From positions 1,984,001 to 2,048,000 of the forward strand of contig JAUFOQ010000006.1 of NCBI GenBank assembly GCA_040285855.1: a stretch of 64,000 bases of DNA, in the 5' to 3' direction. Made by a program: the position numbers and the translations under genes. Position 1 is the stretch's first letter, and every line of letters begins with the position of its first letter. Positions 1 through 53,445 of the stretch are shown piece by piece. The notes beneath the pieces were generated by a model. The model ran no database searches. It saw nothing but the letters and a program-made list of their open reading frames with translations, and was not told where the DNA came from. Origin of the DNA: Eukaryota sp. GEM-RC1. Lineage: Eukaryota.

Positions 1-3000
1 CAATTTTTTTGGAACTGTGATGGCTGATTTTTTCTTGGTTTCCATCTAGATTTGTTAATATCTGCCTTTCTCTCCCCAGCAGTGTATCGGAACACCTTCC
101 ATTTGTCACGCCTTTTCCACTTTACAGGTTGTGGGTTAGTGTCTTGCTTCCAATCATTTAATTGTTTTTTCATTTTTTCAAACTTCCCCTTTTCTTAGAA
201 GATAATGGAGCAATCTTTCTTTTTCTAACTAGGGTAACTGGCTTGGGCTCAATTTCCTTCTCACTTGAGGAATCATCCTTCTCAACTGAGGAATCAATAG
301 ATTGTTCATTGGAAGTAAGATCAATTTCTGTAACACAAGCATTGGCCATTCCATTTTCTATCAATTGTTTTGTTTCATCGACTTCAAATTTCTCACACGC
401 CTCTTCCTCATCAGTTTTTAAACTGGCACAATACATGAGATCATGTTGGTTGGGGTCAACAGCAACAATTCTCTTAGATTTTAAATTCAGCTCTTCAATT
501 TCATCTTCACTTAAGGAATCAATATAACGCTCATTTGAAGCAAGATTAACTGCTATAACATTTTCACGGGCATTTCCATTTTCATCAAGTAAATCTTTCC
601 TCATCATCAACAAACTACAACTTAAACCGTCTGACAAAATTGAAGTGTATTTAAAGTCATAGGATAATGACTCTGGAATAGCCTGAGGTTTTAATACTGA
701 ATTCCAAATAGGTTTCCGTACATCATTATAGTTATAGGGAAGATCCCTACAAAATATTTCGTGAAACCATTGCGTATCGAACCTGATATGATTTGGAATT
801 AAAGATTTAGACAACGGGAAAGGATTGTTTGCTCTTACACCAGGACAATAGTCTTCAATGAGACGGTTCAAATATAATGCATGACTTAAAAAGTATAACG
901 GATCACTCTTTTCGGCATAGTAGATCGTTTTCTCCATCTTTCCTTCAAAATAATTAAACAAATAATTGAAGAATAATATACTCAAGTGAGATTCCGGATT
1001 GGTAAAAACTTGCTTGTCATCAAAATTAATTTTGGAAATTTCACCATTAATGATCAATTCTCTAACTTCATTAATCCTTTGACAGAGTTCTTGTCTTTGG
1101 GTTTTGTCAGTAAGAGCTTCCATTCTCTCTTTCTTTTGAGTAACCAAGTTAAAGACTTGAAAAACATACTCATGAAAGTGTTGGCTCATGTTGTTCTTAT
1201 AATTAGTAATAATTTCGGTTGCAACGTAACCGAGAGGGTTAGACAAATATAGTCCACTTGGAAACACGATCCTATCTCTGCCAACCATTTCACCAGCAGT
1301 TTCTAACAGAGGGATGTAGTTTGATAGGAAGTGTTGGGCGAACTCCTTCTTTGTAGTTGTTGTTTTTGCATTAGAAATGATGTTTTGTAAAGAGTTTTCC
1401 ACAGTTTTAATATGATCAGTACTGTTGAAAAATTGGTGATTTGGAATCCACATCATGGCCAACAGTTGTGACATTGGAGTCAACTTAAAGTAAGCTCCCC
1501 AGTCTGGTAATTCAAATTTGGTAGTTTGAATTTTAGTAAAAAGGTCAAGTTCAGGTTCACCAGTTTCATTTTCATCACCGTCTTCTTCTAAAATATGGCT
1601 GTCTTCTTCTGAAATTTCGGATTCAATTGTACGATCCAAACCAAAATCAGGGTCTGAAGTCACAGGCAATTCAGTTTCTTCTTCTAATTGTTGAGGCACA
1701 AACTCTTCACTTAAAACTTCTGTTTGTTCAGTGTCTGAAACTTCTGTGTCTGTTTCAATTTCTTCTTTAACAGTGAAAATGTAGTCAGATGGAGGTAGTA
1801 TCTCTTTGACCTTGTCGAAAATTAGAGAGTTGTGAAACTTAGTTACGAAAAAATGTTTCAACATATGAGTACCACGAACTCTGACTTGATGAGCTCTCTT
1901 AGCACAAGACTCCATCCAATTGGCTTTAGTCTTTGATACAACATTATCTAATCGTTTCTTCACTGTCTTCAATGGTGGTCGTTCTCTTAATTTTTGCTTC
2001 TTTTCATCGAGAAGATCAAAGAGAATGTATTGTATTAGAAACAACTTATTGATTGAGTTCAATAACAAAGTGGCTCTCGAAGTGTCTCTCGAAGTTTTAG
2101 ATTCCCAAAGTTCATTAAGTTTTGTTAATTCTGCTAACAATCGAATCTCCATTTCAGCTTTGGGTTTTAGTTTTACAGATGGAGCTGTGTTTTGACGTTC
2201 GTCAGTTTTAACCTTAATTTCTTCATCTGACACTAGAGGATTGTCTAAAGAGTGAAATATTCTCTTAAGGAAGATATCTTCATTGTCAAAACTTTCAAAT
2301 GTTCTTGAATGATTATTCATGTCCATCATAATTGTTGTCACGTTTTCCAAAAACCGATCTCTTCTAAAGACATACAACTTCTTCAATACTGAATTCAAGT
2401 CAAGGGAATAAAAAGGACCAATTTCCGTTGGTTTGCACCATCTATGGAACCAAGATGGAAGAGAAGAAATGTAATCATCAATTGTATAATCAATGTCAAT
2501 TTCTAATTTTTTACATCGTGATACTAAGAACGGAAAAGTATCTAAATGCCAATCATAACTTATTAACAAACTGGGCTTGTTAAGATTTAAAAATGTAATG
2601 AAATTTGTTAACATTGATTTTTCAGTTGTAAACGTGTGAACTACACAATTAGGAAGTGAAATTTCTGAAACATTATGGGTGAATAGGTGAGTTTCATTTG
2701 CAAATTTATCATGGGTAAACTGAAGAGAGATTGACACAATTGGGTCTAAATCTGGATCACGTTGAATTTCAAAAGTAGTATCCTGAATTTGTGGAATACC
2801 TTCTGAAGTTGATTCAATCTCTTCGTCTACTTCTGGAACCTGTTTAACTCGAACGACTTTAAGATTCAAGCGTTCAGGATCTGAGATCACACTTTTTACC
2901 TCAATTACACAGAACTTTTGTGGTTGTTTGGGTTCTTGTTCTGGCTGCACTTTAGGTATTGACGGAGGTGACTGAGATGGCATTGTCTGTTTACTTTCAG

Positions 3001-4630
3001 AAACAATTCTTTGTTTTCGTGTTTGAGGAGTAAGACCTGATTGACTGAGTGGATCTCTGGTCCTGATTTTTTTGGAGACACGGATAGGTGTGACAGGAAC
3101 GGGTTTTAATACTGTAGGTGGTAATGGACTGGCTGGACTGATTTTTGATTTTCGTTTTGCAGGAGTAGCACCAGATGGCTCTCTTGGTTTGGACTTACGT
3201 GACTCAGGATGATCAACAGTCGTTACCGTTGGTGGTACAAAATAATTAATAATAGTCTCTCGAACTGAACCAGCATCAATGTCCTTGTTAGCGTTCTGTA
3301 ATTCATCTTTTACAGCTGAAACGTTAACTATATTGCGATAGTTCAAAGCATGTACAAATATTCTGATATACTCAAGGACATAGACTCCTCAGTCATTAGG
3401 TGTTTGTTTCTGGGTAACAGGTACAATGATAGGCCTATACTCAAGCACACTAAGTGCTGAATTCACTGTTGATAAGAACACATTGAAGCTACCAGATGGA
3501 CATTCTACGTTTTCTTCATCTAGATAAAAATCATTAGTGTCGTAATTTGGATCAATGAACAACCACTTTCTGTGTCGACAGTCGATAATCAACAACCCCC
3601 AGTGATAACCTCTGGTACCTGTATTATTAATAACAGGAGCAATGAAATATCGGCAATAACCATTATTTGTCAATTGTTGTATGATAAACTTCGTGAGTAA
3701 AACAACATCAAATTGTTGAGTGGTTGTATCCACAGCATTGTGCAACATTAGAATCGGAGAAATAAAGCATTCAACAGGATAATTATGTAATTTTAAGAGA
3801 TACAGACAATACTGATCAATAACTTCATCATCGATCCACTCATCAGGCAACAAAGTCTGTAAGGCTGATTCAGAAATCGGTCCTGGATTGGACTCAATAT
3901 CACCATCAGCGGTGAGGTCTTCTTTGAATGGATGACGGGAGGAGAAAACTATACGTAATATGAGACACAAAGCAGAAATAGATGATGAAACAACACAAAG
4001 GATCATCTGAGGAATATTACGAGACGAAGTCGGGGGTATGATGGAAAGCACATGAACACAATTCACATAGGCTGTTTCACTAGCGGAAACGAAAATAATT
4101 CTCCAACATCTCATTATACTACCTTGGTCTTGAGGAGCGTGTGAGAGTGAAGTAGTAAGGCGGCAGGCGGAAGAGTAACTCCAACATCTCATTATACTAC
4201 CTTGGTCTTGAGGAGCGTGTGAGAGTGAAGTAGTAAGGCGGCAGGCGGAAGAGTAACTCCAACATCTCATTATACTACCTTGGTCTTGAGGAGCGTGTGA
4301 GAGTGAAGTAGTAAGGCGGCAGGCGGAAGAGTAACTCCAACATCTCATTATACTACCTTGGTCTTGAGGAGCGTGTGAGAGTGAAGTAGTAAGGCGGCAG
4401 GCGGAAGAGTAACTCCAACATCTCATTATACTACCTTGGTCTTGAGGAGCGTGTGAGAGTGAAGTAGTAAGGCGGCAGGCGGAAGAGTAACTCCAACATC
4501 TCATTATACTACCTTGGTCTTGAGGAGCGTGTGAGAGTGAAGTAGTAAGGCGGCAGGCGGAAGAGTAACTCCAACATCTCATTATACTACCTTGGTCTTG
4601 GAGAGCGTGTGAGAGAATTGATGTCGACAT
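1..4630 (-). CDS. Putative polyprotein: repeat leader / 2A / Ulp1-like protease / PolB exonuclease-like domain / Fanzor (TnpB-like); one in-frame TGA, one frameshift, truncated by the window edge
   Basis: ORFs 3389..4654 and 170..3346 are in the same frame, separated only by TGA at 3389-3391 (..QKQTPND*GVYVLEYIRIFVHALNY..). Motifs: DIESNPGP; WIDDEVID..HWGLLIID..FID; DPIVSIS..TEKSMLTNF..PSLLISYD; YVATEIITNYKNN, PFPLSKSLIPNHIRFDT, ILSDGLSCSLL, IVAVDPN. Adding one A to the A-run at ~173-178 restores KKQLNDWK..KWKVFRYTAGER, matching the second Fanzor. First ATG is at 4630. Confidence 0.75.
3878..3928 (-). other. 2A-like ribosomal skipping (StopGo) peptide
   Basis: Translates FKEDLTADGDIESNPG|P, matching the D(V/I)ExNPG-P consensus, after a hydrophobic stretch. 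Confidence 0.8.
4101..4616. repeat. 78-bp tandem repeat, ~6.6 copies (26-aa unit SHAPQDQGSIMRCWSYSSACRLTTSL on the minus strand)
   Basis: Unit starts ctccaacatc at 4101, 4179, 4257, 4335, 4413, 4491 and 4569. Confidence 0.97.
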
Positions 4631-5141
4631 TGAAAGTAAATGATTGTTTGGCAAAGATTTCTTCCATCTATAGTAGGATATCTTACAAGTCAGTCACATT
4701 TCATATAATTCCAAACGTAAGAGCTACTAGCTATCTCCTACTTACTAGCTACTAGCTATTCACCCATCCCTCCTGACGACTAAGAACTTATGTCCACTTC
4801 AGATTTTCTGTTTCATACAAGTGTCTCATATAGATTCAGGGTTACTCTAGTGTGGACATTAATAAACATAAATCTCTCTACATAAAACTTTATCTCTCAT
4901 AAGGTCTAAAAGTAATAACATGTATATTATCTTTTAAAAGCAAACTAGTATGCCTATGTAATTTGTTTGTTGATGTTTTCTATAGTATGTTTTAAAAGTA
5001 TATGTGATAAGTTATTTTATATTGTAATTCAACGTATCTATATTCAGATTAAAGCAAAGAGAAGTTATTAATTGATGACAAATGATTTATTCATACTGCT
5101 AGTAGCTACATGTACATATCCATTGTTTATCCATAACATCA

Positions 5142-7050
5142 TCAATCTACAAAAGTTCTGATTTCATCAGGTACATAAATATCATCGCGAAAGTACTCAA
5201 TAAACTTTTTCGACAAATTCTTAAAGGAAAAAAGATCGTCGTCATGTGCCAAAAGAATCTTCAACTTGTAAACTTTTTCATGCAGAGTTCGAAGTAGTAG
5301 CATGTCAGAGGGAATGTCATATACGATGCACATGAGATTGTTTCCAATGCTACAGTCTGGATTGTTACAGATCATGTTAAATGTCACTTGTGTGGCTGCA
5401 ACAAGAAGTGCTTTGCTTTTTTCTTGCAAAAATAACTTGAATGTATTTGTTTTCTGGGGAGTTTTTGCAAGATTGCATAAGGAGAATACGGTACATGGTA
5501 ACTTTTGTTTAAACTGTCTTACGAGATCTCTACCAGTTTCAATGTTTCCAACCGTGATAATGATTTTATCTTGTGTGTTCAAGTAGTTGTTGCAAACTAT
5601 CCAATTTGAGGTGTGATACAATTAACTGTGATTTTTCCGAGCACGTGGGAATTGATGAAGATATACTTGATGAGGGAGTTGGATGAGGGAGTTCTTCGAC
5701 AGATTCTTCATCATGTGAACCCAATAAATTCACGTAGTCAGAATCCGTGTCATAATTCGGAGCTATCACATCACTTTCAGTTCTTACTTTTTTTTCTGGT
5801 TTAGTCACTTTCATAGCGTCTGATCTTCGTTTGCGGATATCTGGGAGATCTTTGTCTTCAGATATTTCGTCTTCAGAAATTTCGTGTTGGAAAAAGCCGG
5901 CCAATAGTGATTTGGAATGCTTAGAAAAAGTCCAGTCCGGTGGTGGGTTCGTAGATATTTCGGAAGAGAAGGAAGATGCAGTATCTGCCCAGCGTAGAGT
6001 CACAATACTTCCTGTGTCAACAACACAATAGATTTCGGGCTTTACGAGTGATGGGAAAATTTTAATAAGTTTGGAAAACTTCGCATTAGCAGAGACAAAA
6101 CGATTATCAGTTTCCAACGTATTCTCTTCAACATGGTGAATACATATTTCTAATCGTTCAGAAACGTATATGATATACTCGGGGTGGCCAAATAATCCAC
6201 AAGCATCAATAATGACCTCGTGTGTTCCCGTTCGAAAAATACATTCTGCAGTGGCATTAGTCTGTGTGACAGAAAACAATATACAAGGAATTATCTCCGA
6301 TAATAATTTTTTTGTGACTAATATCAGGAATCACTCCAAATTTTTTAAAGTTTACACCATTTGGAGTGGAAATGATGACATCATTGAAGTCAACACTGTT
6401 TTTGGCATAAAAAATTGATTTAGCAGTCAACAGCAGATGCATATAGAACATCTCAAATTCGATAAAGGTCGAATCAATCACACTTTCTGCTTTTGGAAGA
6501 TCATGTCTTTTAACATATTTACTTGAATCCTTGATTGCTGGAATATGGGTTAAAACACCATCTTTTCACCAATATATACATCTTTACGCCTTACACTTAC
6601 ACTACTACATTCAGTCATCACTCCAACTTCAGAAGTAAAAAAGATTTCAGTACTAAAAATCCGTGTCGCGAAATTTAATACAATGACACTACATTGATTT
6701 TTAATGGGTAAGAACACCCACATTGAAGAGGGATGAGTTGGAATGGTGCCTTGTACTGCTATTGAACTATAATCAAAATTGGGAAGATCAATTCGATTCC
6801 ATAAACAGTCATCACCAACTGTCCATATCAATACTTCTTGAGAAGCTGTCAAAACAATAAGATACAAGCCACATCTAGTAATTACTGCATTTTTAATTTC
6901 AGATGCACATGATTGTGTAGAAACAGCTGTGAAATTTAATGGATCAAATGGAGTTGATGACAACAAGACATTGGCAAGAGCAGGCTGAGGTATAGGTGGT
7001 TGCTGGACAAATAATGGTTGAAGGTCAGTTGTATCTGTCTGTAATTCCAC
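5142..7050 (-). pseudogene. Fragmented cargo ORF(s): beta-propeller-like segment followed by a degenerate helicase C-terminal (RecA2)-like segment
   Basis: Chain of ORFs 6550..7050, 6257..6481, 5566..6279 and 5142..5621. The last has QDKIIIT..FLQEKSKALLVAAT..IVYDIP, resembling HELICc. ORF 6550..7050 is in frame with the helicase across TAA 7093-7095. Confidence 0.4.
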
Positions 7051-7092
7051 AGATGAATTCTCAACATGGGATAGGGGTTCAGTTTCAGAAAA

Positions 7093-10000
7093 TTAGTATT
7101 TTCCTGAGGCAGAGTAGGTACGCATATATTCAATCAGTTCAGTTAAAACATCGCATTTGACACAATTTGGACATTCAACATTGTTGCAAAATTTAAAGGT
7201 ATCAACATATTGGTCGATTGAAAACGGCTTGAGACCACCAATGTCATAAGATATGTGCTGTAGATCAATAACTGATCCAGGTTGTACATTTGTAACAAAT
7301 GTGAGTTTCTGTTGAAGTATCGCGATCTGTTCAAATAGTGATGATGGAGAGATTCTTAATCTTTCAGCCAGATATAGAATAAATCGACATCGATTAAGAC
7401 AACCAATGACATTGATCAATTGAGATAATACATCTGCATCATAATCATAGTCAAGTTGATCACCGTCAACATTAAGAATTGCAATCTTTTGTTGTTCAAT
7501 AGATCCCTTCGTAAAATTGAGAAACATTAGTTGGGTGAATAAATTTAATAGTGTAGGCTGAAAGTAGCAACATAATAGGGGAAACTGTTTTTGTGATGAC
7601 ACAAAAACACCAGAGTAATTGTAGCAACAAGAGGCAGGTAAACGAGTGAAAAGTGAATTGTCAAATTTGAAATCAATGCCGTCTACAGAACCATTCAGTG
7701 TAGTACACTTCAAGGGTTTTTGATAATAATTGTTTTCAAACATCGGTACCATATTAAGTTCTAGTTTTCCATTACGATCACAAACAAGATGTTTATTTAA
7801 CAAATTGGCAATCTTTTGATTAGTAAGACGCTTTTGTTTATCCATATCATGAAGTGGTTTATAATTACCAGAATCCAGACCGACCGAACAATGCACGTCA
7901 TTGATGAACGGCAATATGCGTTTATGAAATTTTGAAGCAACCTCATTTTCGAACATTTTGGCAAAGACGAGAGGTGTTACAGTGTTGTTGGATTTGTAAA
8001 GGGTTAGAAACAAACGCTTTGGATGATCTTTAGGTAGCAAGTGTAAATGAACACTGTTTTTCAGGTATTTTGAAAAACATAGAACATCATTCAAATCATT
8101 GAGGTCGAGTGGTAGTAAATCCCGCATCATTTGTTGAAAGATACATTCAATAGGAACTTCAGTTGGAGATGTGAGGACTGTTGACCTTCGTGGACTACGG
8201 AACAAAATTGTATTGTTAGGATAAGATGAAATAAACAACTGGGTCAATTTTTCTGATTCTGTTAAGTAGCAAAGTTGTTGATAGAATTGCTGATTCTGGA
8301 AAGCAGACCATTCATTATTATTCTTATCGATAAAAGTACGGTTGAGATTAAAGTTTCGAAATTTGAAGCGATTAGTGAGTAACACCTTAACACGATCTGC
8401 ATTATTAAGCATAGTTTCAAAAATGAATTCCAAGGAGTCAATATGGCCTTTAAATGAATCATCGACTTGTTGTTTCCACTTGATGATCTGATTAATTTTT
8501 CTAATTAGTGTATCACAGAAAAACTTGAGAGATTGGATATTTAAATAGTCCAGAACTTCAACATTGATTGTACCAGATAGTAATCGGAACAAAAATTTTA
8601 ACATAACATTTAAATCTGAATATCCATGATCAGCGTCATCAGCAAGATACAATTTCAAAAAGTTCCCAAATTTAGCAACTTGATTTACACTATCTGTATG
8701 AAACTTGAAGTTGAACAATTGTGTATCAAATGCACATAATAGGACCAATCCCGGAATAACTTGTTTTCCAAAAAAACAATTAAAAACAAAATGAAAATGT
8801 TCATGAGAGTCACAAAACAAAATTCCCATTCGACCCAATGGTGTTAGTCCATCTACGATATATTCACTTTCCATGATGTTTCGAAGATATAATGAATGCA
8901 TTGCTACATCCAAGAGATCATCCTTTGGTGGATCAGGCATTGACTTGATAAATTTTCGTGGTGTGTTTGAAATCCTTTTGACTGTTAAAAGAAAATCTTC
9001 CAAGGGAGAATTAAGAATTTGGGGCAATTTAGTTTGATGCCTGAATTCGTTGCCGATATATTCAAAGTCAAATAATCTGATACATATACCAGGCATGGTT
9101 CGACCAACTCTCCCAGCACGTTGAATTGCTGAGGACTTTGAAACATGGTGGAGAATCAATTCCTTTTTATAATTTGGAATTCTTTCAAGTCCAGTGTCCA
9201 AAGCGATCACTGCATTGTCAATTGTGAGGGAAGACTCTGCAATGTTCGTAGAAGCAACTATTTTAAATTCTTTGTTTTGAGGTTTACTTGTTGCCTTCTG
9301 TTGATCATCTCCACTCATGTCAGAATCTTTCATTACACGATTTCACTAGAGCATCAGCCTCAAAAGCACCAGGTAAAAATACAATGACTGTTACACCTCT
9401 CATATCGATTGAAACGTTCCAATAATCAAGGATAATATCATAAATGGAACAAAGTATTTCTGTCAGTGCTCGTGTATTAATGATTGAAGGTTTTACAAAT
9501 TTGGAGCACATTTTCTCGAAGTTATTTCTATATGTCCGTACAGCTGCACGTAAATCATTTTGATGACTCAAAACAGCAACACCAAATTCGGATGGAAACC
9601 CAAGCGTCAGCTCGTCAGTCCACTGACACGTATCAAAATTGTTAAAGTCAAGAACATTCAGTGTTCTTGTGAAGAAACCTGTATCAAATGAATACATAGC
9701 TTGTTGATCAATGATGTCAAAGTCACATGAATTTTTTGAATCAAAATATGAGAATATTGAATTCACTTCACCTGATTTTGAACCCAATGTAGCTGAGGCA
9801 AATCCACGTACAACCGAAGAGTCTTGCAAATTCAATTTCATTGACGTTAAAAGCAGATCAACATCCATCGACCTTTCATGAAATTCATGGATGATGACAA
9901 CTTTGAATTTTGATTGAAACATTTTGGGATTTGCCATCAGATTGACAGTAAGCCCAGTTGTCTGATAATGAATCAGTGTACTGGCAGTGATATTATTGTC

Positions 10001-10849
10001 ACCTCCACCAAGTTGGAAAGCGGCAATCGGTAGATCAGACGTGAATTGACTACCTTCTCGTGTACCAGATGATTTATTTAAAAATTGGGCAAGAGCTCTG
10101 CAAGACATTCGGGTTGGTTGCGACACAATAACATTTGAGAGAAAAGCCATTGCAAAAATGATTGGGGAAATTGTGGATTTTCCTGAGCCAGTTGAGCCAG
10201 TAATTACGTATGGAAAATCCGATGGCTGTTCTTTATAGCAGGAAATGCAATGGTTAAGTAATGTCACAAAAGACTCTTGACCATCTGCAGTTGATACAAA
10301 AGATAGCTTGTGTTTAGTCTTAGCTTTGTAAAGAATGTTCATCATGCAAGATAAATGAACAATACTGATAAGGTTATGGTTCTTGACATTTTCTATCCAG
10401 TGCGGAAAAATTAAATCGCAAACCTTTGAAAGAAAGATATCGCCCAATTCGGTAAACTCTTTCTTCAGAACGTTGTATTCAGAGGGTGGAGTTGGATGAA
10501 ATATTTCGGGGAAACTACTTTTCGAAGTTACATGACATACTTACTTCTGCCATACGATCTTCTTCCATAAGAGATTCTTCCATACGATCTTCTTCCATAA
10601 GAGATGAAACATGGTAGAACGAAAACCACTTTGTACAATACTGCCTTGGTCTTGAGGAGCAGAGTACAAAGAAGCGACGACAGCGGAGGAAACAGAGTGT
10701 AAAGAACTTTGGACAATACTGCCTTGGTCTTGAGGAGCAGAGTCCGCAGTTGTTACGATGAAAGGATTCATGTAAACGAAAGAATTGTATCTACATGAAG
10801 ATATCTCACCACACTTCTTTCTGATAGTTCTTTCCCACAGACTTTTCAC
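7093..10849 (-). CDS. DEAH/RHA-family helicase-like protein (frameshift at ~9330; probable 27-30 nt intron near 10515-10544)
   Basis: GSTGSGKST (Walker A), VSQPTRMS, IIHEFHERS (degenerate DExH), SAT, VFLPG, STNIAESSLTID, QRAGRVGR. ORF 10541..10849 is in frame with 9320..10447, and the intervening TAA lies within GTAAGT...AG. Confidence 0.75.
10635..10743. repeat. Two copies of a 31-bp motif, 78 bp apart, related to the 4101-4616 repeat
   Basis: acaatactgccttggtcttgaggagcagagt at ~10635 and ~10713; its core differs from atactaccttggtcttgaggagc in the 78-bp array by one base. Confidence 0.9.
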
Positions 10850-10999
10850 AACAAAATGCCTTCAGACTGACTGGTCATTCTAGTGTCTATGCAGTTATGT
10901 GCCCAAACTCATAATCCTTGACTCTCCTGACTCCTTCAAACTATGATCAATGACAAATATTACAGGCCAGTCTTGTTTATTACTATGCTTTATAGGAAT

Positions 11000-11674
11000 C
11001 TAAAGTTCAAAAGGATTCTTCGTAAAATTGGATTTTTTGACAAGAGACTTAAGAGGAGGGAGTGGAGTCGACGTAATCTCAGTTGTTCCAGTTGATTCTG
11101 ACTCTAACTCATTGCTTGAGTTACTTGATTCTTCTTCATCATTCAATAATTTTTCTTCTCTAACTGTCTTTGGAGATTTAACTTTCTTCATCTTAGCAAG
11201 TCTTGCAGAACATGAAACTTTTTGATGTTGTTCATGTTCTGCAAGATCAGACAAGTCTATTGCTGAGTCAGTTTGATCTTGAATCAAAACAGTATATAAA
11301 TTTTGAGATGACAAGGAATTAGTGGTACCATTCTTTTCTTCAAGAATATGAGTTTCTTTGTTAATAAAGAATTCAATGTTTTCCTTAAGATTATCACCAA
11401 CAACATTTTTAAACCATGTTGTATTGTTGGTGGACACTGCGATATGAGAAGTACTATCAGCAGCTCGGGTGATTAAGATAAAATCTCCATTGATTCCGAG
11501 ATTGTAAGATGAAGTTGAAGGAGTTGATTTTGTCTCAGTAAAAGAAAAGACATTGTATACATCTTGATGTTTAGATGCATACTTCCTCTGATAGGCAGAA
11601 AGACGATGTTTCCGAGACAAAACGTTTGTTGATGAGTTCATGCAAATTTTGCCGGTAAACAAATTTTCCTTCAT
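11000..11674 (-). CDS. Hypothetical protein (element cargo)
   Basis: 224-aa ORF with no recognised motif. Confidence 0.4.
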   Translation of the reverse strand: MKENLFTGKICMNSSTNVLSRKHRLSAYQRKYASKHQDVYNVFSFTETKSTPSTSSYNLGINGDFILITRAADSTSHIAVSTNNTTWFKNVVGDNLKENIEFFINKETHILEEKNGTTNSLSSQNLYTVLIQDQTDSAIDLSDLAEHEQHQKVSCSARLAKMKKVKSPKTVREEKLLNDEEESSNSSNELESESTGTTEITSTPLPPLKSLVKKSNFTKNPFEL

Positions 11675-12464
11675 CGTAATCTCAATGTCTTTGAACGAAC
11701 CTTCTCTTGAAGTGATGTCAAGTCTGTTAGCACAGTTTCATGAACAATGCAACAGAAGTTTGATAACCTTATGCAATTGTTGTCATTGTACTTCGTTAGG
11801 AGATAATTATGTGACCACATCTATATCAACTTCCTTAAAAGATCTTGTGTCAACTCTGTTCTACCCTTCATCAGAAACTTCTAATGTTGAGGAAGTCTTG
11901 ATCAGAGTATCTCATCTTTGGCAGTTCACGCCTCTACTCAACAGTTTTCTCAACTGGACATGTTTAATTGATATTCTTCTTCATTGTTGTCTCAATGATG
12001 ATACTTGTTTGTTTTTGAAGCATTTGCATTTGCTGATCAATAGTTTTGCTTGTTTAGTTGGTATATTATTTTGTCACAGTTCTCGATCTTCTACAACTTT
12101 ATTAATTCCTGCACTCCTCCAAAGTTCACTTCATGATGATGGTCATTTAAGACTTGTTTATTTTAAAAAGATTGAGGATAAACTGTTGTTATTACTTGAG
12201 GACAATGATTATTGTTTGTCTGTTTCAAAGTTTGTTTTGATTTTTGTTAACATTGTTTTAGCAAAAGGTAATAGTAATGATTATACTGGAGTTGTCAATT
12301 TGTTTAGTTTTATTTTAGAACGAAGTGATTTTGTTGATTTGAAACATGTTTTGACTTGGAAAATGTCAGGTAATGATGAGATTGATGTGGATAATTTATG
12401 TGATGAGTTGTTGCAGTTTATTGATAGTGTAGTGAAGTATGTTTGTAAGTATCTGTGTAACTAG
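11640..12464 (+). CDS. Hypothetical helical protein (element cargo, antisense to Fanzor)
   Basis: 274-aa ORF ending immediately before the 14-bp array. Confidence 0.45.
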   Translation: MQILPVNKFSFIVISMSLNEPSLEVMSSLLAQFHEQCNRSLITLCNCCHCTSLGDNYVTTSISTSLKDLVSTLFYPSSETSNVEEVLIRVSHLWQFTPLLNSFLNWTCLIDILLHCCLNDDTCLFLKHLHLLINSFACLVGILFCHSSRSSTTLLIPALLQSSLHDDGHLRLVYFKKIEDKLLLLLEDNDYCLSVSKFVLIFVNIVLAKGNSNDYTGVVNLFSFILERSDFVDLKHVLTWKMSGNDEIDVDNLCDELLQFIDSVVKYVCKYLCN

Positions 12465-12473
12465 ATAAATATT

Positions 12474-12660
12474 GTTACACATCTTGTATTACAGATCTTG
12501 TAAAACATATATTGTATTACTGATCTTGTGTTACAGATCTTGTATTACAAATGTTGTGTTACAAATGTTGTGTTACACATCTTGTATTACACATCTTGTA
12601 TTACGAATCTTGTGTTACAAATCTTGTAAAACACATTTTGTGTTACAAAAAGCACTTGTA
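12474..12660. repeat. 14-bp tandem array (TTACACATCTTGTA-like), ~13 copies
   Basis: atcttg and variants at 14-bp period: 12481, 12495, 12523, 12537, 12579, 12593, 12607, 12621. Confidence 0.92.
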
Positions 12661-12760
12661 GTTTTGTAAATTCAAATATAAAATAGTCAACAATTCAAAA
12701 GATCGAAGGTGAAAAAAATATCAATGTCAACAATTCATTACACATACGACACTTTCATTT

Positions 12761-12920
12761 CAAATGTTGTCATTACAAATGTTATATCACCAAATGTTGT
12801 CATTACAAATGTTGTCATTACAAATGTTATATCACCAAATGTTGTCATTACAAATGTTATATCACCAAATGTTATCATTACAAATATTGTCATTACAAAT
12901 GTTATCATTACAAATATTGT
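12761..12920. repeat. 15-bp tandem array (CAAATGTTGTCATTA / CAAATGTTATATCAC), ~10.5 copies
   Basis: Direct reading of the 15-bp period; shares the TTACAnATnTTGT core with the 14-bp array. Confidence 0.92.
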
Positions 12921-12923
12921 ATT

Positions 12924-13067
12924 TCAGAAGATCCTGGCAGTATCTTCTTGACTAAGTCCTAAGAACAAATACCTCCATACAGCACGTGCTTTTAAGTCTT
13001 CTGAGGGTTTTAGGGGAAGAGATCGAAAATCTTCGTGTGAATGAAGAAGATCCCAAGTCAAACACAT
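12924..13067 (-). pseudogene. Tc1/IS630 transposase N-terminal HTH remnant 1
   Basis: MCLTWDLL..PSEDLKARAVWRYLFLGLSQEDTARIF aligns by eye with MGYTYDML..ASEDTIVRAVWTYYWLGKTQAQIAEYY of the transposase at 55014. Confidence 0.7.
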
Positions 13068-13159
13068 TGTGATGTAAAAGAAGTCTTCAAGAACGGAAGA
13101 GAAGGCGAGGAAGATGAGGGAAAATGTTAGGTCTAAAATGTGAAGATCTAAAATGCGGA

Positions 13160-13309
13160 TCAGACCTTTATGCATCTCGCAACTGCATCTTGGCTTTCAC
13201 CTAAGATGAGGTGAGTGTAGACGGCCCTGGTCTTCGTATCTTCAGATGGACGTCGACTGAGTTGTTTTAAGTCAATTCCTTGTAATAGCATCTCAAAAGT
13301 AAGTCCCAT
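13160..13309 (-). pseudogene. Tc1/IS630 transposase N-terminal HTH remnant 2
   Basis: MGLTFEMLLQGIDLKQLSRRPSEDTKTRAVYTHLILGESQDAVA aligns with MGYTYDMLFDANIDIRQLCCNASEDTIVRAVWTYYWLGKTQAQIA. Confidence 0.75.
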
Positions 13310-13434
13310 TGATGGATAACCAAGGAAATTTGGGTTGGTGAAAGATGTGCTGGTGAGAAAAATTTTACCACCAACTAGAACTAGAATATGCAACCAAAGT
13401 GAAAACCACTGACCGACTTTCAACTTTCAACCCA

Positions 13435-23705: not shown

Positions 23706-24350
23706 TTACGTTTGCGCTTTACAAAAGCTTTCATAAATACCTAAGTTACATTTACACGAATTGGGGTTAATAAGTGAAACATCATCAGGAAATCGATTAA
23801 CAAATTCAAAAATGAAAGGTATTCCGCCCCTAAAAAAGCAGATTTGCAATGAATTGACGATTTGGTAAAACCAAGTCACCAAAATGAGCAGAAGTCTAAA
23901 GTGACGTTGAATCAACTTCTAACAGTGAAGCAAAAAATGATTAATCCTCAACTCGTTAAAAGATCTACAAAAATTCAGATCGATTGAAGGAGCTGTAGAT
24001 CTCAAAAGATAAGTCATTTTTCCGGAGTAGCAAATTTTTAAAATTAAAAACTTAATACTAGTCAGTTTTTCAATATCATTTGAAGAAATTGTGTTGAGTT
24101 CTGAACCACTTCTTTCCAAATAATTAGATAATTCTTGAGAAATTTTAGGAACATTCCCAAGCCAACGTCCTAGAAAACGAAAAGCGTCTTCAATATAATT
24201 GATAAATGGAATCTGAACTCCATTAATAAATACTAGTAATTCTATATCACAGTTTGATGTACAAACCGTTCTGACATCGAGTGATAATACTTTTAGCAAA
24301 TTCAAATATTGTATAAACTTTTTAATCCTTTTTAGCGTGATGCATGCCAC
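23706..24350 (-). pseudogene. Non-LTR retrotransposon RT/thumb remnant
   Basis: FRFLGRWLG..LILKICY..TYLLRSTAP pattern; SFNELRIN is shared with the copy at ~43240. Confidence 0.65.
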
Positions 24351-24791
24351 AATGAAATTTTGGACTGCAATTCATCCCACACTCGTATGGTCGTGTGGCT
24401 GATGGCCTGTCTGGCGGGTTTTTGAAGTGATATTATGAGGTACGTGTCAACCCAACAGGAATTATACTTTTACTTTGATTCAGTATCTCAGTATGTTATT
24501 TATTGAAAAATTCGAGTTTTTTGTTGAAAATGTCATCAATGTACTTAATCAATTGTGTTGTTCTAACCAAATTACAACATCTTCAGATCTTTGCTACAGT
24601 ACTATATTATTTGAATGAATGATATCGACAGATTGGATTACATTTGTATGGATGTAGTTGTAACTTCTGAAGATAGACATATCACAGACAATTAACCAAC
24701 TTTATGGCAGAAAATACCATTGGTCGTAGAGCATTATGGCCTTTTATCATATTTAAGCTTTTGTTTGGGTTTCAGCTGATTTCCTAATTCA

Positions 24792-27269: not shown

Positions 27270-29400
27270 ATGCCCTTATGGCCTCGTAAACGCCCCAAGG
27301 ACTTTCATCGAGATGACAATGTACTTTCCATACCACCTTCCCGTTCTTCCTCTTTCCATACATCTCCACTACGGTCTTCTTCTAGTTCTGCTCTACCTGT
27401 TCCTGTATCCCGTAGTTCATCATTTCACGATTTTTCTCCCGAGTTACTACAAGTCCCTGAACCAGACATGGAAGTTCTATGTCGTATTTGCGAGGATTAT
27501 GTTCCCATCTCTCTTCTTGAAGACCATTCCCGGTATTGCTCTGTTGTTACCCGAGCTGACATGCGTATCTCCTCCTGTGACGAACGTTTAGATAAAATCA
27601 TTGCAGCTATAAACAGAAGAGTCCGAAACCAAAGGCAAACCACCAGTAAACTCCACTCCAGTAGTAGTGATGATCAGTTCCTAGAACGACTTGAAGATGA
27701 CGATGTTGAACTTCTTGAGCAACTATCAGCAACAGCCCTACGAGCTCGCAACCTTTCCGACGACTCTTACTCCTACACCCAACTTCTTGTCTTCAGGGAT
27801 TCCTTCTTAGACCAACTTAAACATTTCCAGACTCGATTCATTAGTAAAAAGACCAGATCATCCCTAACTCTATTCAGTTCAATAGATAGCGATATAGGTG
27901 CTTCAGAATCCACGGCATCTGTCCTCCACTATATTAATCGAGTTGAACGGCTTATTGTTGAAAAACTAGCTGCCGCTGAAACCTCTTCGTCCGTCTCCCC
28001 TATTCTCTCCCCTGCTTCCTCCCGTGGTATTATCTCCCCCATCCCTCGTCATGAACACGTCTCTCCTCTTAGAAAGGACATGTCCAGACTCTCTTCTCCT
28101 GGTACTGACTTCCTTGGCTTTAACCGCGAAGGCTCTCTCACTCAACGATCTCGACCATCTTCTGCTGGCTCTACTTCCTCTCCCCATCGTCTCCCCCTCC
28201 ATCTCAGACTTTGAGATCATTAAACCTATTTCTAGAGGAGCCTTTGGTAGGGTTTTCCTGGCTGTTAAGAAGAGAACTGGGGATACCTATGCTATTAAAG
28301 TACTGAAGAAGGATGATATGGTCAGAAAGAATCAGGTTAATCGGATCAAAACTGAACGTAACATTCTGACCTCTACTGATTGTCCTTTCCTAATCAAGTG
28401 TTACTGGACATTTCAATCATCAAAACACCTCTATATCGTGATGGAATACGTCTCTGGTGGTGATCTCTACTCCCTACTAAACAACGTGGGTCGATTGCCA
28501 GAGGATACAGCAAAGTATTATGTTGCGGAGGTGATTCTTTCCTTGGAGTATCTTCATGCTGTAGGAATTGTTCATCGTGATGTAAAACCTGATAACCTGC
28601 TTGTTTCGGAGGACGGTCACATCAAAATGATTGATTTCGGTCTTTCCCATTACGGAATTGAGACACGGTCGGAACAGAAACCTTCCTTTTCTGACAGTGA
28701 TTCTGATATAGAGATCTCTCAAGCGTCCACTCACAGCAAAGCAAGTGATACCTGTAAAGCAAAACAACGTCGTTTTTCTGTGATTGGAACGCCAGAATAC
28801 CTAGCGCCTGAAATCATTCAAGGATCTGGTCACGATCACTTGGTTGATTGGTGGTCGCTGGGAGTCTTGTGTTTTGAGCTGATATCAGGACTTCCTCCTT
28901 TCGAAGGAGATTCAAAAGAAGAGATCTTTGAGAATATATGCAATCGTAACATCTCTTGGCCTGATGACGTTTCCTTCTCAACTCACGCTGTTTCCTTTGT
29001 CACCTCCCTAATGCAATTAGACACAAGTAAACGTCTGGGTTATAACGGTATTAGTGAGATCAAAGCTCATCCCTTTCTTGCTTCAATTGACTGGGGCACT
29101 CTTCTAACTGAACCTGGTCCTTTCATACCTGTTCTATCTGAAGAACACGATACTTCGTACTTTGATTCGAGGTCACCTCCCCCTGATAGTGAGCCATTTG
29201 GAAGTCCGCAATCACCTCCTTTAGATTGTGGTTCTCCTACTTATGACGATCCGAGGTTTCCGAACTTTGCTTATAAGAATATTCATCATTTGGAGCAAAT
29301 GAATTTAGCTGTGAGTGATGAGTATAGGCGGCGAAAGAGTTTTGTACAGGTGATCTCTTCTGAGGATGATTATGATGATTGTGAATATTACGATATATAG
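27270..29400 (+). CDS. AGC kinase, IRE/Rim15/Greatwall-like (frameshift at ~28195)
   Basis: CRICE..HSRYC zinc finger, then KPISRGAFGRV, HRDVKPDN, DFGLS, GTPEYLAPE and an AGC tail (DTSYF). Confidence 0.88.
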
Positions 29401-48699: not shown

Positions 48700-49192
48700 C
48701 TATTGCAGATGCAGATGGAACAAATGCTTTTCATTTTTGGAGGTCGAAATTGCATTTCCTCCTAACGTGCTGGAGTAGTTTTCATTTTGGGTGAATACTA
48801 CTAGTAGTATCCCCATTTTACCAATTCCCCCACACACCCAATTCCCACAAACTCTTTTTACTTATAGGATACACTTTTGAGATGCTCTGGGACTCAAGAC
48901 TCGACTTAACGAGCATGTCTATCCACGCTTCGGAAGGCACCAAAGTGACGGCTGTTTGGTCCTATCTCTGGACGGGGAGAACCATCTTTCTTTCTTCCTT
49001 TTCTCGCAAAGTATGATCTCTCGCTGGATAAACAGTGCATATTCTCCTTCTTATGATAATCTTTCATCTTCTCATTCTGACCGTCACAAGCTGAAAGCAT
49101 ATGTTGACTTGGAAATCTTGATTCATTATGTTTTTCTTTTGTTCATAAAGTTAAGCCATATATGCCAGTCTATTATCACTATCTATTGTCTT

Positions 49193-50376
49193 TTAGTTGT
49201 CACAAGATGTGTAATACAAGATTTGTAACACAAGATGTGTAATACAAGATGTGTAATACAAGATGTGTAATACAAGATGTGTTTTACAAGATGTGTAATA
49301 CAAGATGAAACTATCAAAATTACCTATATTGTCCAATCTTTTCAAAATTAAATATAATTCAAATAAAACACACATACCAGTCTTTTCATCATTTTTCAAA
49401 TACTCTTTCAAAACATGAAACAATTCCACAAGCACATCACTACAATAACGTTCATCAACATTATCCTTATTAATCACATCGGTAATGTAACAGTTCCTTA
49501 TTGTTTTCACTTCCATACTTGATGCAGATTCAGATCCAATACAATCTAGTACATTATCGACAATTGACTGAATTCCAATAGTTAAGTCCACTCTCAATTG
49601 TTTGTAAGTAGCAACACGATTATACTCCAAAATAGGAGACAATGATATTGTTTCATAAGTCACATTGTCAGTTTGTTGATATTCACATATGGAATCACAT
49701 TTTTCATTTTCAAAGCTTTCAGTCTGAACTTCCTTGAGACAAAATCGTTTTTCATCATCAATAAGAGGAAACACTTGGGAACTTTTTCTTTCTATACCAG
49801 CACTGACATTCTTATTTAATAATAAATTCTTCGTTGGTAAAGGGGTTTTCTTCAAACGGGGAAGCGATGGTAGAGTAATGTTGCCTCGTGGTAATTGAGG
49901 AAGTTTAGACTTATTGACACAAATCTCAGCAGAATTTTTGTTAAAAATTGAGTCACAATTAATAAATTTGGGAGGAATATTAGTTTCATCTTCTTCAAGT
50001 TCATCATTTACAACAAAATCATCTAAACTTGTTGAAATTGTATCATTATCAGATTCATCACCAGAATCGGATCCTGATAGTACAGCTTCTGTTTCAAATA
50101 AATTTGATTTTTCGAAATGGTTTAAACGATTTTTTCCAAGTCAATAATTTTTTCATCAACATTATCAACAATAACTTCATCAACACAATGAACATCTTCA
50201 GGAACAACAACATCATCCGTAATTGGTTCACTCGATTCTGCACAAAAGTTTGCAAACAATGAATTAAAATGATTGAAATCTCGTTGAAGACAATGTTGAT
50301 TTCCCAAAACATACAAATCAATAGTTGATGGCTTAACAGGATGAAAAGTTGAATAATACCATTGATACAATTCCAA
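49193..50376 (-). CDS. Hypothetical protein antisense to Fanzor (probably one frameshifted gene)
   Basis: ORFs 50122..50376 and 49193..49855; ends within the 14-bp array. Confidence 0.4.
49201..49307. repeat. 14-bp tandem array, ~8 copies; reverse complement of the 12474-12660 array
   Basis: caagat at 49203, 49217, 49231, 49245, 49259, 49273, 49287 and 49301. Confidence 0.93.
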
Positions 50377-50401
50377 ATTTGGTACTGGATAACTTCTTAC
50401 A

Positions 50402-53350
50402 ATGCTTAAAATCTTTAAACTCCTCCAAGACCGTCTCAGTGTTATCCGAAATCAAAGAGCAACAGTAAGGGGTTCTAATTTTTGAAACATCTCCTTATTT
50501 GTGAGTTTGAAACACGTGGATGTGAATTAAATTTGATGAATCGTCATTACTTTCGGCAATATCTCTTAGAATCTTCTGTTTCGGAATCAAAAGAACGAGA
50601 TTTAATGTACGAACATGATTTTTTGGAGAAACGACTTCGTGAAATGGAGTTAATGTATGAACATGATCTTTTTGAGAAACGACTTCGTGAAATGGAGTTA
50701 ATGTATGAACATGATTTTGATTCGTATCCATCAGAACTTTCTGATTTGTTGGCATTAAATGAACGTAAATTAATGAAGAGCCATGATACAATGCCTGATT
50801 CTGATGATGCATCTGTTTCTGATCCGTTAGAACCTTCTGATTTACCCCTCTACACTAAGTTTTCAGTAGTCTTACCAGATTTGAAAAAACTGCTTAAACA
50901 CGATTCTATTAGACAAGTATTGAGACGGATGTATGTGAAGAAATCAACTGGTTCTTCAATTACAGAGTCAGAACTAGAAATGTCAAGAGCAGAGGCTCAA
51001 AAAGTGATTGACGATTTCCAAAAATCTTCAAGACTAGAAATGATCGAAAAAGAAAAAATTGCATTTCACTACTTGAACAACTTTTCTCCACTTCTACAAC
51101 AGTTGTCTGATGAAATTGGAACAAATCAAATTTCATTTCCTGATTCTACGTCAATGTCTCCCATATTTCATTACACTGCCAAACAAATTTCTACAAATTA
51201 TGCCAACAATATGGTCAAAAATTTTCATGATTATGTATTCAGATTCTTTAATCTGGTAACAAGAAAGAAAGTAAGACTTGAACAGATAAATGATCAAGTT
51301 GATAAGAAAGAATTGATTTCGAAATTGAATTCAGTCAGAGATTCGATTATCGATGGAAATTTTGATGACATTCCAATTGCAGATCACGAGATTTTCCCTA
51401 ATCCACGTGAAGAACTAACGTTGAGGTTTTTTTGCGTATTTGAAATTTTCATTGTTTCCAATGTTTTCAAAAAGAACATTTACTATTTACAGAAAGCAAA
51501 GCCGACAGAGTTAATTTCTCATGCTCTGTACATCAACCGAACTATACAATCTTTGTGTTTGGTTGATGGAAAACCAATCAGTGTAAACAACCCTTTTCCA
51601 ATGACGAAGACATTGATTCCTCAGCATATTCGTTTGGACACAGGTTGGATGAATGATAGATTTGTTCATATACGTGGCAAAAATGCAGATGAAATAAGAA
51701 AAAAGGTCTTTGATCAGGTCCTTACTGACAAAGCTGTGGCACCAACAAAATCATTTGTCTTTAGATATTCTTCAATTCTGACAGATGGAATTTCTTGTTG
51801 TTTGGTTTTAATGAGGAAAGATTTGGTTGATGAAGATGGAAATACTTTCAAAGATTTTACTGCTAAATCTCTCGGAACTGCGGAAAGATACATTCACTCT
51901 TTATCAAATGAGAATATTCACGAATTACAATTGAAAGAAAAAAAGAATTGTCGGTGTCGATCCCAATGAATATGATTTAATGTATTGTGTTTCAGAAAAG
52001 ACAGTCGATGAGCTTAAAGATGAAGATATTTCAGAAAATAATCCACTCAAAAAACGATTACCCTCAGAAATCAGAAGTAAGAAAAGAGGAGGAATTAAGA
52101 AAAGAAAGAAACAATTACAAGATTGGAAAAATTCGAATAATGATGTAAAATCAAAGAAAAAGGCTAAGCACAAATGGAAAAAGTTTAATTATACAGCTGG
52201 AGAAAGAGCTTACGATAGGAAATCTAAAAAATATCGTAAATCTGAAAATAGAAAACTGAAAGAATTTTCTATCGAATCACCAGACGAAACTGTCACTGAA
52301 AGACAACTTAAAGATTTTTTGGTTCTCCACTCTGATAGAATTCTTGTAACAGGAAGAGATGTCACTAACCAATTCTCCAATGCTGTATCAAACGGGGAAA
52401 GAAAGTCGTGTTTCAGTGACACATTTGGAACATATATTAAAGAAGCTGAAAGATATAACGTATATTTGAGTTCTTTCTACGAAGATGACTGGTTTAGAAA
52501 GAGGAAATTCCAAATTTATTCTAATAACCAACGTTCGGAGAAAAACATGCTGGAACGCTTCAATTTAACATATGGACCTCCAGAAGATGTCGTCATTGGG
52601 TATGGGGATTGGAGCTCAAAAGGTAAAACAAGAAAGGGCAAAACCTCTACTGTTAGAGGAGTGGAAATCCGTAAAATGTTAAGAAGATATGGATACCAAA
52701 TATTTCTTGTTGATGAATACAGAACAAGCAAGTGTTGTTCCAAATGTGCTAAGGAAAAATCAACTTTCGTAGAATGTGAAAATGTTTCGGAACTAAAGGT
52801 TCTTGGTCCCAAAGGTAAGAGACAGCTAAGAAGGAAGAAGAGAAAGTTAAGAAGAGAAATTTTGCTCAAAAACAAACAAGATCCTCTAAACCAGCGGGAT
52901 TTTTGGAAGCAGAGTGGGAGGTGAAGCAGAAGTCATTGGAAGAAGAAGCTAAATCCACACCCTGGGGACTGGTAAAGTGCTCAGATGCTGATTGTGGTAC
53001 TTATTGGAATAGAGACCTAAATTCTGCCATTAATATCTATTCCATCATTGAAGCAACGATCAATGGTCAAGGTAGGCCATCCGCTCTCGAGAGATCTAAA
53101 ACTCAAACAACAGATCTCAAGAGTGGTAAGGATACTTTGGCGAGAGACCAGAAGAAGAAGAAGACTGCGACCAAAAAGAAGAAAAACTTCAACAGGAAAG
53201 AACAAAACTTCGACAGGAAAGAAGAATACATGTGGAAATTGTGGCCAAGAAGGTCATAACAAAAGGTCATGCCAGAATCCACCAAAAGAAATGAGTTCGC
53301 CTAAAAGAAGAAGCGTAAAGTCAGTCAAGAAGAAGAAGGTCTCTCGTTAA
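50402..53350 (+). CDS. Fanzor1-type (TnpB-derived) RNA-guided nuclease with C-terminal CCHC knuckle; four homopolymer frameshifts
   Basis: VRGSNF(L)KH; YTAKQISTNYANN; PFPMTKTLIPQHIRLDT; ILTDGISC; IVGVDPN (RuvC-I, shifted frame at ~51950); IGYGDWS; VDEYRTSKCCSKC; CSDADCGTYWNRDLNSAINI (RuvC-III); CGNCGQEGHNKRSC. Confidence 0.85.
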
Positions 53351-53445
53351 TAACTTTAGTGTACTTTTAACGGTACACAGCGCAGTGGGCTTAGCTCACT
53401 GAGTGTCTGTGGTTTCGATACTCTAATCAAAATGAAAATTAACAA
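53351..53445 (+). ncRNA. Candidate Fanzor omegaRNA 3' scaffold / element end
   Basis: Hairpins GTGTAC..GTACAC, CAGTGGGC-TTA-GCTCACTG and GAGTGTC..GATACTC immediately after the Fanzor stop codon. Confidence 0.5.

Follow-up and report, generated by a model that had tools for sequence, protein, structure and literature searches.

Background

Fanzor1 genes are carried by TA-flanked Mariner transposons, some of which bring along a second nuclease gene (Bao and Jurka, PMC3627910), and bacterial TnpB drives copy-back by recombination (PMC10690162). ULP protease domains are common cargo of DNA transposons (PMC2528002), the 3'-5' exonuclease of the phage T4 polymerase influences intron homing (PMC2988022), and most eukaryotic 2A motifs lie near the start of their open reading frame (ORF), with unclear function (PMC12338488). 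Here, we describe a single frame in which a 2A motif, a C48/Ulp1 protease domain and a PolB-type exonuclease domain precede a Fanzor1. It lies in a stretch of 64,000 nucleotides of Eukaryota sp. GEM-RC1 (GCA_040285855.1, contig JAUFOQ010000006.1, positions 1,984,001 to 2,048,000 of the forward strand); "the window" means this whole stretch, and coordinates are positions in it.

Our preferred reading, which we regard as reasonably probable, is that the gene encodes a 2A-led fusion of Fanzor1 with an exonuclease and, optionally, a protease, carried by a large non-autonomous Tc1/mariner-type transposon and acting as one multi-domain protein after the 2A. The window is eukaryotic, since it holds genes for ATG9, Sec16, TFIIB, a kinase, Patched, a RhoGAP and a PolQ-like helicase. 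We take GEM-RC1 and the other species with relatives of the gene, TZLM3-RCL (RCL below), to be skoliomonad metamonads, from the likeness of the name to "Skoliomonas sp. GEMRC" (PMC11316075); the taxonomy entry for TZLM3-RCL reads only unclassified eukaryote.

Reading frame, domain order and the Fanzor module

On the minus strand, one frame runs from the ATG at 4630 to the TGA at 172-170 (1,486 codons), and the TGA at 3391-3389 is its sole in-frame stop. The other two minus-strand frames contain 91 and 164 stops over the same span, and 1,000 shuffles give at least 70. Along this frame, a leader with a 78-nucleotide repeat is followed by a 2A motif, then by a C48/Ulp1 domain and a linker, and finally by a PolB-type exonuclease domain and the N-terminal half of a Fanzor1 (Table 1). 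An earlier interpretation made from the letters alone (the sequence-only reading) had described a single frame from this ATG, broken only at the TGA and by a slip at about 175, and this same domain order. The stop counts agree with the former, and the latter is borne out by Pfam (C48 and DNA_pol_B_exo1), the fold search and a match to the Fanzor1 SpuFz1. The anatomy of the fusion frame is genuine. As sequenced, the window copy would terminate at codon 414 and no Fanzor would be made; with a full length estimated at about 1,850 amino acids, it is a damaged member of a multicopy gene family.

Table 1. Positions of the fusion gene, its carrier element and the sister element in the window
Feature	Position	Strand
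Leader peptide, from ATG 4630 to the 2A	3902..4630	-
78-nucleotide tandem array, 6.6 copies, 99% matches, read as a 26-residue repeat	4101..4615	-
2A/StopGo core DIESNPG-P; skipping predicted ahead of Pro 3880-3878	3878..3901	-
Ulp1/C48 domain with His343, Asp360 and oxyanion Gln409; TGA in place of the catalytic Cys codon	3236..3880	-
In-frame TGA at the catalytic Cys position of the protease	3389..3391	-
Ser/Pro/Lys-rich linker with two [ST]GxTP motifs	2920..3235	-
PolB-type (DEDDy) 3'-5' exonuclease-fold domain, without the acids of ExoI and ExoIII and with ExoII altered	2110..2914	-
Fanzor1 N-terminal half, WED/REC region to RuvC-I (VAVDPNQHD, 466-440); acidic insertion at about 1750-1540	173..1972	-
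Further Fanzor coding sequence, past a slip of one base within a run of A	3..176	-
DEAH-type helicase frame, about 1,850 codons, several stops and slips; leader with a 23-nucleotide motif at 78-nucleotide spacing	5142..10771	-
14-nucleotide and 15-nucleotide subterminal arrays	12475..12922	.
5' remnant of a Tc1/mariner-type (DDE_3 family) transposase; counterpart at 48858-48983	13178..13309	-
Left terminal repeat of the fusion-bearing element, preceded by TG	13395..13408	-
Sister element with flanking TA, an inverted repeat at each end, a transposase remnant, the 14-nucleotide array and a Fanzor1 at about 50410-53259	48776..53441	+

The Fanzor module is identified by several comparisons. The region below 1954 matches SpuFz1 (8gkh) with a phmmer E-value of 7.8e-11 up to the DPN motif of RuvC-I, where the sequence-only reading had staked its case on a Fanzor match below about 1950, and the Fanzor family profile matches the window copy at E 7e-116. 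By homology of its N-terminal half and its intact RuvC-I Asp, the window copy can be assigned to Fanzor1. It is 37% identical over 393 amino acids to a second Fanzor1 at 50.4 kb, with which the sequence-only reading had called it collinear; the second copy, then called stand-alone, is itself split by slips and reaches upstream to about 50,410. The C-terminal half of the 50.4-kb copy matches three solved Fanzor1 proteins, and the C-terminal motif D...[TS][TS]xx-C4 zinc finger...RD is found across its slips as well as in 8 of 10 RCL members (spacing about 280 residues). As a check for omega-RNA, its 3' region was folded; there is a hairpin, and the predicted folding does not surpass that of shuffled sequence (z -0.30).

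At the slip at about 175, five relatives continue in frame and another (P0003; such labels denote individual relatives) ends at the same point, and the frame 176-3 after the slip is 60% identical to P0171. ATG9 is split between frames by the same type of one-base break (at profile position 395/395), and the kinase and leucine-rich repeat (LRR) genes switch frame at short homopolymers. Because the slip lies in an A run and similar breaks occur in host genes, an assembly error seems likelier than a real or programmed slip. Independently of the fusion gene, frame changes without an obvious intron are seen in the genes for the kinase, Patched, the LRR protein and ATG9 (27970-28214, 34719-34900, 41694-41730, 57652-57701), a sign of indel errors in the assembly.

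Relatives in two species

The closest relatives found by phmmer are NCBI hypothetical proteins of GEM-RC1 and TZLM3-RCL, drawn from 150 of 205 matches at E-values up to 0.001; the best GEM-RC1 relatives are 90-94% identical. P0014 (1,473 amino acids) contains a leader, 2A, linker, exonuclease and complete Fanzor1 in a single protein. It belongs to two clusters with ten RCL members in total, of which six are single proteins of 1,394-1,494 amino acids that combine the 2A with ExoI/II/III, RuvC-I/II/III and the zinc finger, the other four being partial; no protease domain was matched in the four RCL members scanned or in P0178. Among 20 proteins scanned, five, from GEM-RC1, match both C48 and the PolB exonuclease, and two match the PolB exonuclease and the Fanzor TNB domain. 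P0156, P0161, P0169 and P0007 align unbroken to the window from the protease domain through the exonuclease to the start of the Fanzor, and P0156 has a repeat leader, a 2A and a Cys-intact protease and extends to window residue 1049. KAL0237921.1 is an example of a Cys-intact paralogue in which 2A, Ulp1 and exonuclease are joined. The sequence-only reading had predicted a Fanzor fusion of more than 1,500 amino acids and had made it depend on in-frame continuity in other copies. The domain order is real, the length is estimated at the 1,850 or so given above, and the continuity recurs piece by piece in other copies.

Outside this family, we scanned 41 other Fanzor-like matches, 26 of which match the TNB domain and none C48 or the PolB exonuclease. 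Searching proteins of 810-2,578 amino acids with the RCL exonuclease region gave no more than two RCL clusters and a single PolB. When the Fanzor half was used in a word-index search (817-2,601 amino acids), nothing matched, a false negative in view of P0014. For longer forms with the protease, a profile search is uninformative, since it was limited to 1,923-5,000 amino acids and returned one unrelated viral polyprotein. In pattern scans of metagenome contigs, 0 of 114 and 0 of 79 matches were confirmed.

In a quick tree of the Fanzor N-terminal half, built from 59 of 102 qualifying rows (14 skoliomonad or window rows and the first 45 others by id), the window, GEM and RCL rows form a clade with support 98 that includes one long unnamed row, and the exonuclease-less 50.4-kb copy pairs with the window copy, also with support 98. 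Since this copy is nested among fusions, the fusion is probably ancestral and was probably lost in the 50.4-kb copy.

Exonuclease domain and linker

The exonuclease domain scores 30.4 bits in Pfam (DNA_pol_B_exo1, cut-off 23). DNA polymerase delta is the top match both in a profile search (E 1.4e-9) and in a Foldseek search with the predicted model (E 3e-9), and archaeal PolB proofreading domains are also among the top matches of both searches. The predicted local distance difference test score (pLDDT) of the core of the model is 64-92 over most of residues 61-180, and past residue 187 the model is poor (mean 51). In the window copy and the GEM-RC1 paralogues alike, the ExoI and ExoIII acids are lost and ExoII is changed; with its catalytic acids missing, the domain here is a pseudo-exonuclease. 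The TZLM3-RCL members retain SFDVE, GYNCDKFD and YxxND, and ExoI DxE, ExoII N...FD and ExoIII YxxxD are all present in 7 of 10 of them, alignments that misplace exonuclease fragments being excluded.

In both species, the exonuclease domain has a fixed place immediately in front of the Fanzor, and DEDD-fold enzymes include RNA trimmers. It might therefore act on RNA, trimming the 3' end of an omega-RNA precursor that runs past the end of the element to yield the mature guide. We consider this unlikely. Both searches rank DNA polymerase delta and the archaeal proofreading domains first, the window lineage survives with a degenerate active site, and a TnpB is reported to process its own precursor (PMC10690162).

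In the linker, [ST]GxTP occurs at 3175-3161 and 3040-3026 on the minus strand, usually with a basic residue next to it. The motif, which was chosen post hoc, is present in all 12 linkers examined from both species, and these linkers are otherwise unalike. Lying beside basic runs that look like nuclear localization signals, it presumably resembles a site for cyclin-dependent kinases, and it could couple nuclear entry to the cell cycle.

Leader, 2A motif and the polyprotein alternative

DIESNPGP fits the D(V/I)ExNPG-P core of 2A/StopGo, and a 2A-type motif is present in 19 further relatives (one DTESNPGP, one NLGP), always within the first 217 residues. Where two relatives are 87-100% identical across the 150 residues that follow the 2A, their leaders are often unrelated, and in several relatives the leaders are tandem repeats that differ in sequence; this comparison rests on gene models, in which the choice of start may add to the differences. 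The window copy itself is a mosaic whose closest relatives are P0011 before the 2A, P0004 in the protease and linker, P0005 in the exonuclease and P0003 in the Fanzor. Given unrelated leaders on near-identical bodies and this mosaic structure, the leader peptide is unlikely to be a functional protein, and the 2A likely serves to free the body from a disposable leader. A 23-nucleotide motif of the leader array recurs at 78-nucleotide spacing ahead of the upstream helicase frame, and from this recurrence the array is likely a cis element such as a promoter. A ribozyme or known RNA in the leader was rejected: an Rfam scan of 3900-13400 gave two weak matches, far below the gathering score and both outside the leader, and the fold of the leader repeat has a z-score of 0.08.

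A second 2A cassette lies at the other end of the window (63540-63998, plus strand), with DVENNPGP at about 63810-63833 behind a 99-nucleotide repeat leader. Its upstream segment resembles that of the fusion gene, and its downstream ORF is different, leaves the window and has no Pfam match. 2A leaders thus seem to be reused before unrelated ORFs in the GEM-RC1 genome.

The sequence-only reading had taken the gene for a virus-style polyprotein, in which 2A skipping and self-proteolysis would release separate protease, exonuclease and Fanzor. The canonical 2A right before a clan-CE protease domain, with a flexible linker behind it, suits this idea, and the linker motif found 12 times out of 12 could, post hoc as its choice was, be a cut site. 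However, the virus-style label is not supported for a gene with one 2A, close to its N-terminus, in a terminal-repeat DNA transposon whose flanks are host genes (Sec16, ATG9, TFIIB, kinase, RhoGAP) with no viral setting, and a narrow pattern scan of viral contigs confirmed none of 24 matches. Self-proteolysis fared no better. Neither a Gly-Gly nor an adenain-type site, the two types checked, occurs in the 1,486 residues, the full-length relatives lack the protease, the protease-less RCL members also keep the linker motif, and the second of the tandem protease domains in paralogues has Ser for Cys. We consider the polyprotein improbable; more likely, the leader is shed by the 2A and the remainder stays one chain.

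Protease domain and the in-frame TGA

With the TGA read as X, the domain scores 26 bits for Peptidase_C48 (PF02902), above the cut-off of 20.7, with an E-value of 9.7e-6; a Pfam scan of only the ORF that ends at the TGA gives no match. The catalytic set of the window copy is incomplete, His, Asp and Gln being kept and Cys replaced by the stop codon. Triad and oxyanion Gln are complete in 15 paralogues. Tandem protease domains occur in the GEM-RC1 proteins P0005, P0021, P0161 and P0169, where it is the second domain that has Ser in place of the catalytic Cys.

Among the paralogues, protease domains have been multiplied and exchanged, and some are dead; ULP domains are recurrent in transposons (PMC2528002), and the exonuclease is dead in the window lineage. 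All this would be expected if the accessory domains were mainly counter-silencing or host-manipulating cargo. They would then ride on the expression and nuclear targeting of the Fanzor, which with its omega-RNA would deliver a de-SUMOylase to element sequences, with no role in copy-back. We give this little credence: the protease-less RCL members keep every RuvC and exonuclease catalytic motif, and the RuvC-I Asp of the window copy is intact.

Of all 1,486 codons, it is precisely the one for the catalytic nucleophile that is the sole in-frame stop, which is the pattern of selenoproteins. The TGA might thus be recoded, as selenocysteine or Cys, to give a selenoprotease or a regulated read-through. 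However, the equivalent motif has Cys in 16 of 16 matches from 15 other proteins, including P0004, the closest paralogue for this domain (188 of 213 residues identical, 88%); none of 200 proteins in the examined set ends at the motif; and host-type ORFs, for example those for the PolQ-like helicase and kinesin, use TGA as a normal terminator. These observations indicate a nonsense change or a base error and no recoding. The adjacent helicase frame likewise has in-frame stops, and we regard recoding as very improbable.

Carrier element, sister element and neighbours

Upstream of each of the two Fanzors, and oriented alike relative to it, lie the 5' remnant of a DDE_3-type transposase and a 14-nucleotide array; the array of the second Fanzor is at 49202-49307. 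The remnant upstream of the fusion is 47% identical over 45 amino acids to the DDE_3 ORF at 54.9 kb. The two left ends share a terminal motif, of which the 64 kb contain three occurrences where 0.21 would be expected: one at 13408, one at 48776 and an inverted one at 53441, which is 182 nucleotides beyond the stop of the second Fanzor. TA is present on both sides of the sister element. Since the pattern was derived from the two left ends, only the third occurrence is independent; when two mismatches are allowed, the count is still three, and it is reached in 5 of 100 shuffles. The right end of the fusion-bearing element lies beyond the window edge. The fusion likely sits in a non-autonomous Tc1/mariner-type transposon of more than 13.4 kb that also spans the helicase frame, with nested insertions possible; the presence of only a 5' remnant of the transposase is consistent with a non-autonomous element. 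The helicase frame, in which a 2A motif was sought and none found, is likely a second cargo gene. The Fanzor1 of the sister element has no 2A, protease or exonuclease.

The region is full of decayed mobile pieces and the copy is a mosaic, but chance in-frame adjacency of nested unrelated insertions is largely refuted, and hardly credible, given that many copies have the identical order, which is also found across two species whose proteins are about 30% identical.

Several further features accompany the two elements. In both, an unassigned ORF (11595-12464, plus strand; 49193-50140, minus strand) runs antisense toward the 14-nucleotide array, and outside this array the two ORFs show no homology. 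Just past the second Fanzor element lies a 760-bp element (53505-54264) with perfect 31-bp terminal inverted repeats, like a miniature inverted-repeat transposable element. Elsewhere, there are two diverged inverted-repeat pairs, 23846-23933 and 43268-43368, and a short ORF (23919-24371, minus strand) that we take to resemble a reverse-transcriptase tail; these are probably leftovers of another mobile family.

Proposed mechanism

In the fusion that we favour, ribosomal skipping would discard any leader, giving a fixed N-terminus and probably lower output, and would leave a chain of roughly 1,600 residues that starts with Pro. Loaded with an omega-RNA from the right end of the element, the Fanzor would cut the empty site after excision, and repair would then copy the element back from the sister chromatid. 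At such a break, the 3' ends would not match the template and would have to be trimmed; the exonuclease, active-looking in TZLM3-RCL, would do this so that synthesis can start. In the window lineage, the domain would persist as a non-catalytic DNA-binding appendage. The protease would be an optional add-on, since there are RCL members without it, and would free host proteins on the element or in its vicinity from SUMO or some other ubiquitin-like tag, with no self-cutting.

Several points weigh against this picture. No protein in the set examined unites the protease, the exonuclease and a complete RuvC, and the protease-bearing full form is pieced together from paralogues that overlap. Since all relatives are gene models, predicted introns are possible within them. 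The RuvC-II, zinc finger and RuvC-III of the window copy fall beyond the window edge. As for the element, TG stands instead of TA before the left terminal repeat, the terminal motif is a short one whose pattern was in part chosen post hoc, and an intact-looking DDE_3 transposase (54936-56102, plus strand), kin to the remnants at 13.3 and 48.9 kb, is without the terminal motif. Since the exonuclease is degenerate in the window lineage, trimming cannot explain why the domain is retained there. The biological role of Fanzors is stated as unknown (PMC10432273), the copy-back role being only proposed for them, and engineered fusions of TREX1, TREX2 and T5 exonuclease impaired editing by MmeFz2, a Fanzor2 (PMC12923547).

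A bolder version of the proposal is possible but doubtful: an all-in-one homing machine, in which RNA-guided cutting, trimming by a proofreading domain and SUMO stripping would reside on one polypeptide, the 2A would be a universal joint for swapping promoters or leaders and modules, and the proteins would be the largest Fanzors.

All modules are individually known, and the core is a Fanzor1; their combination is unusually large, conserved and directly testable. The exonuclease-Fanzor fusion across two species points to end processing and copy-back as the selected function, and the idea is testable with RCL members of 1,400-1,500 amino acids, such as KAL0225525.1, that have all catalytic motifs and are already in NCBI as hypothetical proteins. 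The gene also adds a DNA transposon to the settings of 2A recoding, and the near-identical bodies with unrelated leaders form a natural data set on the purpose of N-terminal 2As. In addition, it may inform editor design, where hand-made exonuclease fusions harmed a Fanzor2 (PMC12923547).

Comparison with known systems

The sequence-only reading knew of no such architecture, and we likewise found no description of a Fanzor fused to Ulp1 or to an exonuclease in a literature that was mostly open-access. In term look-ups, "exonuclease" is absent from the main texts of PMC10432273, PMC10711439 and PMC11423790, and neither "protease" nor "exonuclease" occurs in PMC3627910, as far as these texts were available. 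The fusions in the available parts of PMC10530073 are to GFP and tags, and its two supplementary files lack the four domain terms; Fanzor goes unmentioned in the accessible parts of PMC11316075, PMC12338488 and PMC13405545.

Like described Fanzor1 proteins (SpuFz1, PDB 8gkh; GtFz1; PpFz1; PMC10432273, PMC11423790), the fusion has homologous WED/REC and RuvC-I regions, and its relatives and the 50.4-kb copy have complete RuvC and zinc-finger motifs. Unlike them, the fusions add N-terminal 2A, exonuclease and protease domains. Described Fanzors have 400-700 amino acids, most Fanzor1 proteins 600-700, against 1,400-1,500 in the fusions and the larger estimate for the window copy. The two elements of the window resemble the Mariners PGv-1, PUl-1 and PUl-4 (PMC3627910) in their 5' transposase or remnant and variable 3' cargo, and the sister element does so also in its TA duplication and terminal inverted repeats. 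In those Mariners, however, the extra nuclease is a separate gene, whereas here it is fused, and the fusion-bearing element exceeds 13 kb including the helicase frame.

The single 2A near the N-terminus is shared with the ORFs of non-long-terminal-repeat retrotransposons (L1Tc, Ingi and APE-type; PMC3894237, PMC3708506), where control of output has been proposed for it; unlike in L1Tc and Ingi, the carrier here is a DNA transposon, a Fanzor lies downstream and the leaders are interchangeable. A captured C48 domain in a DNA transposon is also known from ULP1-carrying MULE and CACTA elements such as Kaonashi (PMC2528002), but there it is joined to or lies beside the transposase, and here it is in frame with an RNA-guided nuclease. 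Finally, the proposed use of the exonuclease resembles intron homing in phage T4 (PMC2988022), in which the break made by the element's endonuclease is processed with a PolB 3'-5' exonuclease (43Exo); there, the exonuclease of the phage polymerase acts in trans and no guide RNA is involved.

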